DNA of 64,000 bases from Rhodocyclaceae bacterium (GTDB taxonomy: Bacteria; Pseudomonadota; Gammaproteobacteria; Burkholderiales; Rhodocyclaceae). Each line of letters starts with the position of its first letter. Positions within the stretch are counted from its first letter, which is position 1. Of the stretch, positions 30,677 to 31,781 are shown in pieces. A program made the position numbers and the translations under genes. The notes below the pieces were generated by a model that did not search any database, was not told where the DNA came from, and saw only the letters and a program-made list of their open reading frames with translations. The stretch lies in the NCBI GenBank assembly GCA_028714035.1, contig JAQTNA010000017.1:6750-70749 (forward strand), read 5' to 3'.

Positions 30677-31678
30677 ATGCAGCGACTCGAACTCTTGCAG
30701 CAATGGCTGCATGGCCTCTTCCCGGGCCGCGACTTCACCTTGGCCCCGGCTTCCGCCGACGCCAGTTTCCGCCGTTATTTCCGGGTGAGCTTTCCCGCGG
30801 ACGAATCCCTCATCGTCATGGACGCGCCGCCCGAGCGGGAGGATTGCCGTCCCTACCTGCATGTGGCGGAGCTTTTCTGGCAGGCCGGCACCCACGTACC
30901 GGCGGTGCTGGAAAAAAATCTGGATCAGGGTTTCCTCCTGCTCTCCGATCTGGGCAGCACCACCTATCTCGCCGCCCTGAGGCCGGAAAACGCCCGGCGC
31001 CTGTATGGCGACGCCACGGCGGCCCTGGTCAAGATACAGCTCGCCAGCCGCCCCGGTGAGTTGCCCGAATATGACCGCGCCCTCCTCCAGCGGGAACTGG
31101 ATCTGTTCCCGGACTGGTACCTGACGCGCCACCTCGGGCTGAGCCTGACGGACAGCCAGAGGAACGTCCTCAAGGCCGCGTTTGATCACATCCTGGCGGT
31201 GAACCTGGCCGAGCCCCGGGTGTTCGTGCATCGCGACTACCATTCCCGCAACCTGATGCTGCTGCCGGATGCCGCCAATCCCGGCGTGCTGGATTTCCAG
31301 GATGCGGTGTATGGCCCCATCTCCTACGATCTGGTGTCGCTGTTCAAGGATGCCTACGTGGAATGGGAGGAGGAGGAAACCCTGGACTGGCTCATCCGCT
31401 ACTGGGAACAGGCGAGGAAGGCCGGCCTGCCGGTGAATCCGGATTTCGCGCTCTTCCACCGGGATTATGAATTCATGGGCGCCCAGCGTCACATCAAGGT
31501 GCTGGGCATCTTCGCCCGTCTCTATCATCGGGACGGCAAGGACGGCTACCTCAAGGACATGCCGCTCGTCATGCACTACCTGAGGAAGATCTGCGATCGC
31601 TACCGTGCCCTCGGGCCCCTGCTGAAACTCCTGGACGACATCGAGGGCAAACGGGTAGAGGTGGGGTATACATTCTAG
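30677..31678 (+). CDS. amgK: N-acetylmuramate/N-acetylglucosamine kinase (aminoglycoside phosphotransferase fold)
   Basis: Track ORF 30572..31678 is trimmed to ATG 30677. Motifs: [12 protein letters not shown], Brenner motif [11 protein letters not shown] and DFQDAV. It is divergent from lptD and followed by murU, as in Pseudomonas. Confidence 0.85.
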
Positions 31679-31781
31679 GGAGTGGAAAATGGGGAGTGGG
31701 GAGTGGGAATGTCAGGCGCGCTTCGCGCGCAAACTCCCCGCTCCCCACTCCCCGCTCCCCACTCCCCGCTCCCCACTCCCC
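31678..31781. repeat. intercistronic hairpin element C
   Basis: The left arm is made of GGGGAGT words (GGGAGTGGAAAATGGGGAGTGGGGAGTGGG). The apex is GCGCGC-TTC-GCGCGC (31715-31729). The right arm is (CTCCCCGCTCCCCA) x3.5. It abuts the amgK stop and the murU ATG. Confidence 0.8.

Follow-up and report, generated by a model that had tools for sequence, protein, structure and literature searches.

Spacer-filling heptamer hairpins of a Rhodocyclaceae bacterium as probable miniature members of an intervening-sequence-like class of insertion elements

What are the hairpins of about 100 nt that fill the spacers between co-directional genes in a Rhodocyclaceae bacterium, and how do they come to lie there? 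Four of them occur in the window analyzed here, a stretch of 64,000 nucleotides (G000:C17:6750-70749) from a 4.02-Mb draft genome (G000; 64% GC, 87 contigs), an assembly from which rRNA operons and repeats may be absent. The four hairpins are probably miniature members, lacking an open reading frame (ORF), of a class of palindromic insertion elements resembling the intervening sequences of 23S rRNA: selfish, co-transcribed with the host operon and likely to be cut by RNase III. The elements are discrete palindromic inserts, abundant, patchily distributed and placed exactly between stop and start codons, and they are akin in build and genomic niche to elements that bear a PF05635 gene. Among the readings offered in an earlier note on the window, a mobile hairpin, given there as the fallback, is closest to the evidence.

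The four hairpins and their genome-wide family

Direct reading of the sequence placed the four hairpins where the earlier note had put them. The copies, designated A to D, and their main parts are as follows.

1919..2028, + strand: copy A, GGCTAGR word family, between the GNAT and CoA-binding genes
1936..1938, + strand: stop codon TAG of the GNAT gene (ORF 1408..1938), within the second arm unit (GACTAG) of copy A
1966..1984, + strand: core of copy A, G-CGCGCGC-AAA-GCGCGCG-G, oriented by the rule of its G..G flank
17649..17757, - strand: copy B, TGTCAGT / (T/C)AACTGA word family, in the pilQ/aroK spacer, with its core on the - strand
17694-17712, - strand: core of copy B, C-CGCGCGC-TTT-GCGCGCG-C, read directly
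31667..31781, orientation ambiguous: copy C, GGGGAGT word family, filling the amgK/murU junction
52925..53028, + strand: copy D, GTGAGGN word family, between liuB and liuC
52971-52989, + strand: core of copy D, G-CGGGCGC-GTA-GCGCCCG-G, read directly

As had been proposed, all four form long hairpins, their energies ranging from -48 to -68 kcal/mol. The folding energies were -48.3 kcal/mol for copy A (z -2.8 against dinucleotide shuffles), -53.3 for copy B (z -8.4), -68.4 for copy C (z -8.9) and -52 for copy D (z -4.2). The apices were also found as described: CGCGCGC-AAA-GCGCGCG at 1967-1983, CGCGCGC-TTT-GCGCGCG at 17695-17711, GCGCGC-TTC-GCGCGC at 31716-31730 and CGGGCGC-GTA-GCGCCCG at 52972-52988, with AATAGTT(T/G)G common to copies A and D. 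The core of copy C is atypical and its orientation ambiguous. At the Pfam level the flanking genes agree with the names given before, namely GNAT/CoA_binding_2, secretin (PilQ)/shikimate kinase, APH-type kinase/nucleotidyl transferase and carboxyl transferase/enoyl-CoA hydratase.

None of the window copies, 95-110 nt in length, contains an ORF. The next start codon lies 1-14 nt past the far arm, in agreement with the earlier description, but the other boundary had to be corrected, the upstream stop codon being in the arm or right at its start in all four. The ATG of the CoA-binding gene (2026; ORF 2026..2499) lies 5 nt past the right arm of copy A. The pilQ stop TGA (17658-17660) falls within the first arm unit of copy B, and aroK starts with GTG at 17765. 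The amgK stop TAG (31676-31678) abuts the left arm of copy C (GGAGTGG...), and the murU ATG at 31782 follows directly after the right arm. The liuB stop TGA (52921-52923) opens the first TGAG.. unit of copy D; beyond the element lie a Shine-Dalgarno sequence, GGAG, and the start codon ATG at 53036. Intrinsic termination was considered and rejected, as the stem is not followed by a run of T; the 3' arms lead into CCTGAAATG, CTGATAAAATC, ATGAAAACC and CGCAGTTGGAG.

A covariance model (R1) was built from 60 copies of this genome, copy A being among the training set. Its matches in the window are exactly the four copies. Copy A scored 43.5 bits on the + strand (E 1.8e-8) and 17.8 bits on the - strand, copy B 77.4 bits (-) and 58.7 bits (+), copy C 54.3 bits (+) and 52.2 bits (-), and copy D 51.6 bits (+) and 39.8 bits (-). 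Rfam gave no match in the window at the gathering score, consistent with the earlier remark that no named repeat family was recognized, and in E-value mode it returned only sub-threshold noise of the generic microRNA-hairpin kind. The plasmid and phage collections gave no match to a 94-nt element.

The earlier note had proposed a genome-wide census with such a model. The family turned out to be real and large, although the strand-specific orientation did not hold (see below). With E<=0.01 on both strands, R1 gave 147 matches in G000 among the 150 candidates scored, the candidates scored being what R1 match counts refer to here. The genome holds about 97 cored copies, 82 found by pattern and 15 by R1, and beside these about 45 tip-less heptamer hairpins, together about 140 elements. 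Terminal inverted repeats, small size and some 97 cored copies are traits shared with MITEs (miniature inverted-repeat transposable elements).

The structure of the element was derived from column-pair frequencies, since RNAalifold on a MAFFT alignment paired the repeats out of register. The arms are tandem heptamers. Strict tandem arrays numbered 101 at period 7, compared with 8 at period 5, 20 at period 6, 1 at period 8 and 2 at period 9; array counts rest on this strict scan and on a census of array pairs, because in a relaxed scan the control periods 6, 8 and 9 scored about equally. A typical arm has about four heptamers (28-30 nt), and arrays reach 10 units. The largest subfamily, GAGAGTC, has sharp termini, AGTCGAGAG...CTCTCGACT. 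Of its 22 copies, 11 are of the modal length, 93-94 nt, and the remainder are mostly near 87 or 101 nt, about one unit less or more.

The arms had been described as short words specific to each copy. The true words are the heptamers GGCTAGR, TGTCAGT, GGGGAGT and GTGAGGN, each common to many copies, and the window copies looked copy-specific because they belong to four different word families. There are about eight such families (GAGAGTC, GGTRAGC, GGGRAGT, GGCTAGR, GTGAGGN, TGTCAGT, GGGATCA and a few more). In the MAFFT alignment all of them share a single register, a G recurring at every seventh position, and most words follow NNNN-AG-N.

Structure rather than sequence had been thought to be conserved, which was taken to point to a selected hairpin. 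This did not stand, as the apex and the unpaired linkers are conserved in sequence. The core is a polar module of about 25-35 nt, a very stable GC mini-hairpin with unpaired AT-rich linkers, and its asymmetric consensus is ..TCATG-CGCGCC-GAA-GGCGCG-GAAAC... The pattern CGCGCC-N3-GGCGCG occurs 57 times in G000, 52 times with adjoining heptamer arrays, and GCGCGCCNNNGGCGCGG occurs 48 times against once for the reversed control. The asymmetric, G..G-flanked core is present in 72 of the 82 pattern copies and is oriented by its unpaired flanks. The loops are GAA (24 copies), GCA (13), AAA (7), GTA (4) and TTC (4). The linkers were also considered as direct repeats produced by insertion of the core; AATTCAT stands on both sides in two or three copies, and this is not general.

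A census of adjacent array pairs that does not depend on the core yielded 115 pairs. The strict core pattern was present in 51; about 15 of the 64 missed could be read as degenerate CGCGCC-type cores. The remaining pairs, about 45, have short loops, unique centers of 50-108 nt, or a second recurrent center, CCGATYC...GGCTGAACAT. This second apex module, about 28 nt long, replaces the CGCGCC core in hairpins of the GGTAAGC family at the following sites in G000.

C54:7170-7263: second apex module
C32:12721-12801: second apex module
C66:3695-3817: second apex module
C18:10700-10781: second apex module

Its presence suggests that the apex cargoes are interchangeable. Two elements of the sister genome G001 (G001:C138:6768-6928 and G001:C53:13124-13288) have a double core: inside their heptamer arms, two CGCGCC-type mini-hairpins enclose about 45 nt of unique sequence.

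A fifth, degenerate relative had also been claimed. The region has no heptamer arms, and R1 gave no match there at E<=10 with filters off.

53863..53942, + strand: rejected fifth relative, with small hairpins GCCGC-GAA-GCGGC and GCACGC-GTA-GCGTGC; fold z -1.9

The surrounding segment, 53825-53978, is flanked by two near-identical 33-nt copies of the first 11 codons of liuD and contains small GNA-looped GC hairpins and no heptamers.

Operon junctions: placement, selection and turnover

Location and orientation were evaluated on crude gene calls based on GC content at third codon positions, in which start codons are unreliable. The 82 pattern copies lie mostly within operons, a point that the earlier note had asked to be tested: 62 have co-directional neighbors, 8 convergent and 3 divergent ones. 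The median spacer is 107 nt, so the element makes up the spacer. The stop codon lies inside the folded stem in 44 of the 62 co-directional cases, as judged from gene-call distances, a version with all long ORFs being too noisy at 64% GC. A single orientation, the other point to be tested, was not found; the core runs with transcription in 26 copies and against it in 31, which is random. Random orientation had been named in the note as an outcome that would weaken its idea, and it speaks against a strand-specific RNA signal.

This placement could be explained if the host had selected the hairpin as a cis-acting RNA that stabilizes the upstream message, serves as a processing site or tunes translational coupling. 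The excess of co-directional sites, the near absence of divergent ones and the filling of the spacer would be accounted for, as would the downstream start that abuts the stem without a Shine-Dalgarno sequence in three of the four window copies. Additionally, folding favors the sense strand over the antisense strand by a mean of 2.2 kcal/mol (39 vs 23 copies, p=0.02), and 204 G-U pairs are predicted on the sense strand vs 158 on the antisense strand. The bias hints at some selection at the RNA level; transcription-linked C-to-T mutation could also be its source. Against it stand the random orientation of the core, flanking genes that have no function in common and a patchy distribution across genera. 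The same junctions are, moreover, empty in other genera and in part in the sister species.

The arms themselves were then weighed against this explanation. Across word families 83% of the cells are paired, compared with 70% after shuffling, and both sides have changed in 310 cells vs 132. This covariation says little on its own, because any inverted repeat of one word yields such pairing. Within the GAGAGTC subfamily, the largest, compensatory pairing is absent: mirrored C/G and A/G variant units gave 323 matches, fewer than the 343+-5.6 obtained with the arms re-dealt among copies, and virtually all copies have a mismatch at the second unit. The opposite arm had been said always to carry the complementary word. 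It does so in 91 of the 115 array pairs; in the other 24, nine of which have a core, the arms are non-complementary (for example GGCTAGA|CTGACAA, GAGGACT|CTGACAA and GTGAGG|CTGATTC). A generic conserved structured RNA was rejected on the same grounds, namely covariation confined to differences between word families, mirrored matches below the re-dealt value and the 26:31 orientation. A hairpin maintained by the host for an RNA function is thus an unlikely explanation of the family.

Comparison of junctions between genomes points to insertion and replacement. These comparisons were made with the sister genome G001, a congener of about 73% nucleotide identity in genes, and with other genera. In two other genera amgK and murU stand 8-10 nt apart, whereas the junction holds elements of 103 nt in G000 and 120 nt in G001 that belong to different word families. 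One junction reads TGA-ATAAA-ATG in G000, and in G001 this stop and start are parted by a 90-nt element. Judged from such sequences, the host junctions were originally 5-10 nt long. About 62 loci were found in G001, of which 50 were mapped onto G000. At 16 of these G000 has a cored element, almost always of another word family, at about a dozen it has a core-less heptamer hairpin or another repeat family, and about five are empty with gaps of 11-51 nt. The dominant word family is GTGAGGN in G001 and GAGAGTC in G000. Operon junctions are therefore recurrent hosts whose contents are quickly replaced.

Several of these junctions hold other material. At G000:C72:744-958 and G000:C30:2822-2892 there are other palindromic families (the MITE-like CAGAGGCGCAGAG and a three-part TGTAGGG...CCCTACA) where G001 has heptamer hairpins, and operon junctions appear to be landing sites common to several repeat families. 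Where G001 has a full element (G001:C15:24068-24174), the empty junction G000:C63:3356-3371 keeps one and a half units of heptamer (GAGTCGAGA), located after the stop codon and before the Shine-Dalgarno sequence; these could be a deletion remnant or a seed.

The pilQ/aroK junction has a history of its own. In three other genera (L010, L012, L013) it contains an intrinsic-terminator-like hairpin followed by a -10-like box (TACAAT / TAGAAT / GATAAAAT) and then the aroK GTG. G000 and G001 have the heptamer hairpin in the place of the terminator hairpin and keep the -10 box (window 17754-17764), from which aroK may have its own promoter. This substitution fits an RNA function as well as a second explanation, growth in place without any mobility, in which slippage and fold-back template switching would enlarge GC-rich hairpins that already stood at gene ends. 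Length steps of 7, arrays of up to 10 units, arms that are heterogeneous between copies and the unit left at the empty G000 site would all follow from such growth. However, independent local growth cannot yield one asymmetric core and linker of 25-35 nt at some 97 sites and in other families of the order. Furthermore, the termini are sharp with mostly exactly four units per arm, and the ancestral amgK/murU spacer of 8-10 nt offered no hairpin to grow from. We consider growth in place highly improbable and insertion of discrete elements the better account.

The PF05635 elements and the spread of the core

The relatives that carry a gene between their arms connect the hairpins with rRNA intervening sequences. 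PF05635 is the four-helix-bundle protein of 23S rRNA intervening sequences. Its homolog Avd serves diversity-generating retroelements as an accessory protein (PMC10053308). PF05635 genes were found in G001, G006 and G021, all of which have R1 matches, and they lie between heptamer arms there and in 14 other relatives. Of 21 PF05635 loci examined in relatives, the majority stand between inverted heptamer arrays whose word classes are those seen in G000. In G006 and G021 the genes stand between inverted arrays, and in G001 a pseudogene with GTGAGGN arms occupies the secD/secF junction; the right-hand linker that follows it, GGTTTTAC, recurs in core-less elements of the same genome. A further 17 loci, nearly all of them between inverted arrays of these word classes, comprise 23S rRNA (2), guaB/guaA (in 4 genera), ahcY/metF (2), rfb (2), secD/secF (1), dnaK/dnaJ (1) and other contexts (5). 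In G000 some of the same positions hold hairpins without an ORF: cored ones at secD/secF and immediately downstream of ahcY, and a core-less one with a 108-nt center at dnaK/dnaJ. That center was inspected as a possible PF05635 remnant and rejected, a VGYL motif alone being too weak.

The two features also coincide across genomes. When R1 matches and PF05635 were cross-tabulated for 151 genomes of the family (8/6/9/128, the first being positive for both), the odds ratio was 19 with a Fisher p of 9e-6, a value that is overstated as related genomes are not independent. The eight double-positive genomes span seven genera.

Within the GTDB family R1 matched 13 of 150 genomes (12 of 79 genera), and it matched 14 of 150 genomes from at least 10 other families of the order. 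When one genome per species was searched for an exact 20-mer taken from the core, the same core with other heptamer arms was recovered in a metagenome-assembled genome (MAG) of Thiobacillus denitrificans (GGTAGTC), in Azonexus MAGs (CAGGGNT), in an unclassified betaproteobacterium (GTAGCNN), in Hydrogenophilales MAGs and in a Rhodocyclales MAG. A core that is nearly identical across families, combined with so patchy a distribution, suits an element that is mobile or moves horizontally better than it suits a device of the host.

The 20-mer GCGCGCCGAAGGCGCGGAAA recurs in contigs of Candidatus Saccharibacteria (L020, L023, L032, L037, L042, L049). The context there is different, highly conserved and about 120 nt long, has no heptamer arms, and may be a conserved RNA or a gene segment.

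Extragenic position, palindromic form, abundance, few copies in divergent regions and the lack of a target-site duplication are also features of REP/REPIN-type elements moved by a RAYT (an IS200/IS605-like Y1 transposase). Alternatively, the tip could be a double-stranded DNA site for a dimeric host protein that reads CGCGCC-N3-GGCGCG; the perfect interrupted palindrome of the core would suit a dimer, which reads either orientation alike and so would fit the random orientation. The C-GAA-G mini-hairpin of the core, akin to hairpins of the GCGAAGC type, is also a very stable fold of single-stranded DNA. However, the REP found on both sides of the one clear RAYT gene of G000 (C14:55003-55459) is another one, GTAGGTCGGGxTTxxCCCGAC, no heptamer hairpins lie beside that gene, and the GTAG head is absent from the elements. 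The presence of Y1_Tnp does not track them either, G004 having elements without a match and many genomes a match without elements. As for a binding site, a symmetric target in double-stranded DNA needs neither the asymmetry nor the conservation that the loop and linkers show. Taken together, movement by a RAYT or service as a protein-binding site is very unlikely.

The REP system of G000 was recorded in its own right. The locus G000:C14:55003-55459 is a classical REP/RAYT pair, a 150-aa Y1-transposase-like gene with GTAGGTCGGGATT..CCCGAC palindromes on both sides (GTAGGTCGGG..CCCGAC REPs). Further REP copies lie at C31:33453-33564 and C14:66389-66495 and near C3:7715 and C38:4120, and the same REP (GTCGGGCTGAAGCCCGAC) fills some G000 junctions that hold heptamer hairpins in G001. 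Another repeat type, GGGCGTTGGGGTCA direct repeats, borders a 290-aa Y1_Tnp-like ORF with a C-terminal helix-turn-helix-like tail at G000:C19:30603-31476.

Returning to the reading of the hairpins as ORF-less, intervening-sequence-like inserts, the following scheme can be proposed. The core module at the apex would stand where larger members, including the classical 23S rRNA intervening sequences, carry the PF05635 gene. The elements would spread as selfish DNA, copied possibly in trans by ORF-bearing members or by conversion between elements with like arms, and would persist because a self-contained hairpin is nearly neutral within an operon. Many arm words contain TGA, TAA or TAG, so that the upstream gene would end at once; since these stop-bearing words repeat at period 7, a stop is provided in every reading frame. 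The fold is predicted to bring the stop codon and the next start codon together, and a terminating ribosome would melt the base of the stem and free the next start. An imperfect RNA duplex of 40-45 bp is a likely substrate for RNase III by analogy with the stems of intervening sequences, and a cut would part the transcript of the two genes. G000 encodes RNase III (rnc). In Coxiella the intervening sequence has been portrayed as selfish, its 28-bp stem of inverted repeats being cut by RNase III (PMC4990558).

Several observations weigh against this scheme. No PF05635 gene was detectable in G000, where one could sit in the rRNA operons missing from the 87-contig draft. To our knowledge PF05635 is not a known transposase, and no copying enzyme has been identified for the elements; no transposase-bearing relative was found, the gene-bearing relatives carrying PF05635 only. 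One PF05635 locus of G001 has direct rather than inverted arrays, and at two or three loci the arrays are weak. The core was not seen in the ORF-bearing elements, and for junk DNA its sequence is conserved across families to an unusual degree. Target-site duplications are absent from the flanks of 22 well-bounded copies. No insertion was caught between near-identical strains, mobility being deduced from the comparisons at about 73% identity, and the Logan contig with copy D is identical to the window and uninformative on strain variation. The recurrent occupation of junctions could also be long persistence with replacement of the arms. The better folding of the sense strand and its hint of RNA-level selection belong here as well.

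One more reading takes the module of about 30 nt (TCATG-CGCGCC-GNA-GGCGCG-GAAAC) to be the functional unit itself. It would then be an ultra-small mobile element, homing to the tips of heptamer hairpins, or else the hairpin at which some undescribed copying machinery recognizes its target or is primed. Such machinery might combine an Avd-like PF05635 protein with a polymerase or reverse transcriptase and also lay down the heptamer arms, which would explain the single register (NNNN-AG-N) and the genome-specific dominant words at conserved junctions. We regard this role of the core as improbable on present evidence.

Known systems and biological meaning

The 23S rRNA intervening sequences of Coxiella burnetii and Leptospira (PMC4990558) are similar in having a long inverted-repeat stem, 28 bp in Coxiella against about four heptamers here, and in being viewed as selfish inserts tolerated by the host; in relatives of G000, both the classical intervening sequences in 23S rRNA and the PF05635 genes at operon junctions have heptamer arms of the same word classes. 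The window copies differ in lacking an ORF, in their length (about 95-110 vs about 430 nt) and in lying at mRNA operon junctions rather than in rRNA. Moreover, the GC-rich core is unreported in the intervening sequences, and cutting by RNase III is only predicted here.

Heptamer repeats in other phyla offer further parallels. The convergent GGGAATC pairs of Xanthomonas and the GGGGAYT repeats of Nostoc (Rehm et al. 2015, PMC4692102) are G-rich heptamer arrays that are about 90% intergenic, lie mostly between co-directional genes and near an ORF, and often form inverted stem-loop pairs. They differ in having one word per genome and in having been read as simple repeats that form G-quadruplexes, and the report includes no apex core, multiple word families or link to PF05635. 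The STRRs of heterocystous cyanobacteria and the TAACTGA repeats of Beggiatoaceae (PMC4679880) are likewise intergenic tandem heptamers that stand directly before starts without a Shine-Dalgarno sequence. Exact runs of TAACTGA occur within the word family (T/C)AACTGA, which is TGTCAGT/TTATCAG here. STRR1 (CCCCAGT) and STRR3 (CAACAGT) have the NNNN-AG-N form, as do most words of this family. However, these repeats are mainly direct arrays, not inverted around a core, and occur in different phyla.

REP/REPIN elements (PMC3116915) are also short, abundant extragenic palindromes without target-site duplication, and REPINs are hairpin doublets of about 100 nt. The present elements differ in showing no RAYT association, in their tandem heptamer arms and in lacking the GTAG head. 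The Correia/NEMIS elements of Neisseria and the ERIC/IRU elements of enterobacteria are about 100-150 bp long, have inverted repeats, lie beside or between genes and are transcribed as hairpins, those of Correia being cut by RNase III. Unlike such operon MITEs, the elements described here have no TA duplication, no parental insertion sequence with a matching inverted repeat, and a modular build from heptamers. The small dispersed repeats (SDR) of Nostoc (Elhai et al. 2008, Genome Res 18:1484) reportedly include a conserved unit of about 21-27 nt in heptamer hairpins that was proposed to be a very small mobile element, a lead from a different sequence and phylum. The closest published descriptions lack a conserved apex core, several word families per genome and a betaproteobacterial family; the conserved tip module and the spread through Betaproteobacteria are new.

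Heptamer-repeat hairpins are found in operon junctions of many phyla, and the literature on them is piecemeal, divided among STRRs, G-quadruplex repeats, TAACTGA repeats and rRNA intervening sequences. The present genome supplies a large and clean betaproteobacterial data set, with about 140 elements, about eight arm families, an apex module that crosses families and a testable tie to the Avd-like PF05635 protein. In practical terms the elements mislead gene callers, long ORFs running into the arms. They also add or replace stop codons and separate genes that had been translationally coupled, and they may place RNase III sites within operons. If the tie to PF05635 is true, the 23S rRNA intervening sequences and the intergenic heptamer repeats, both long unexplained, would be one class of selfish elements.

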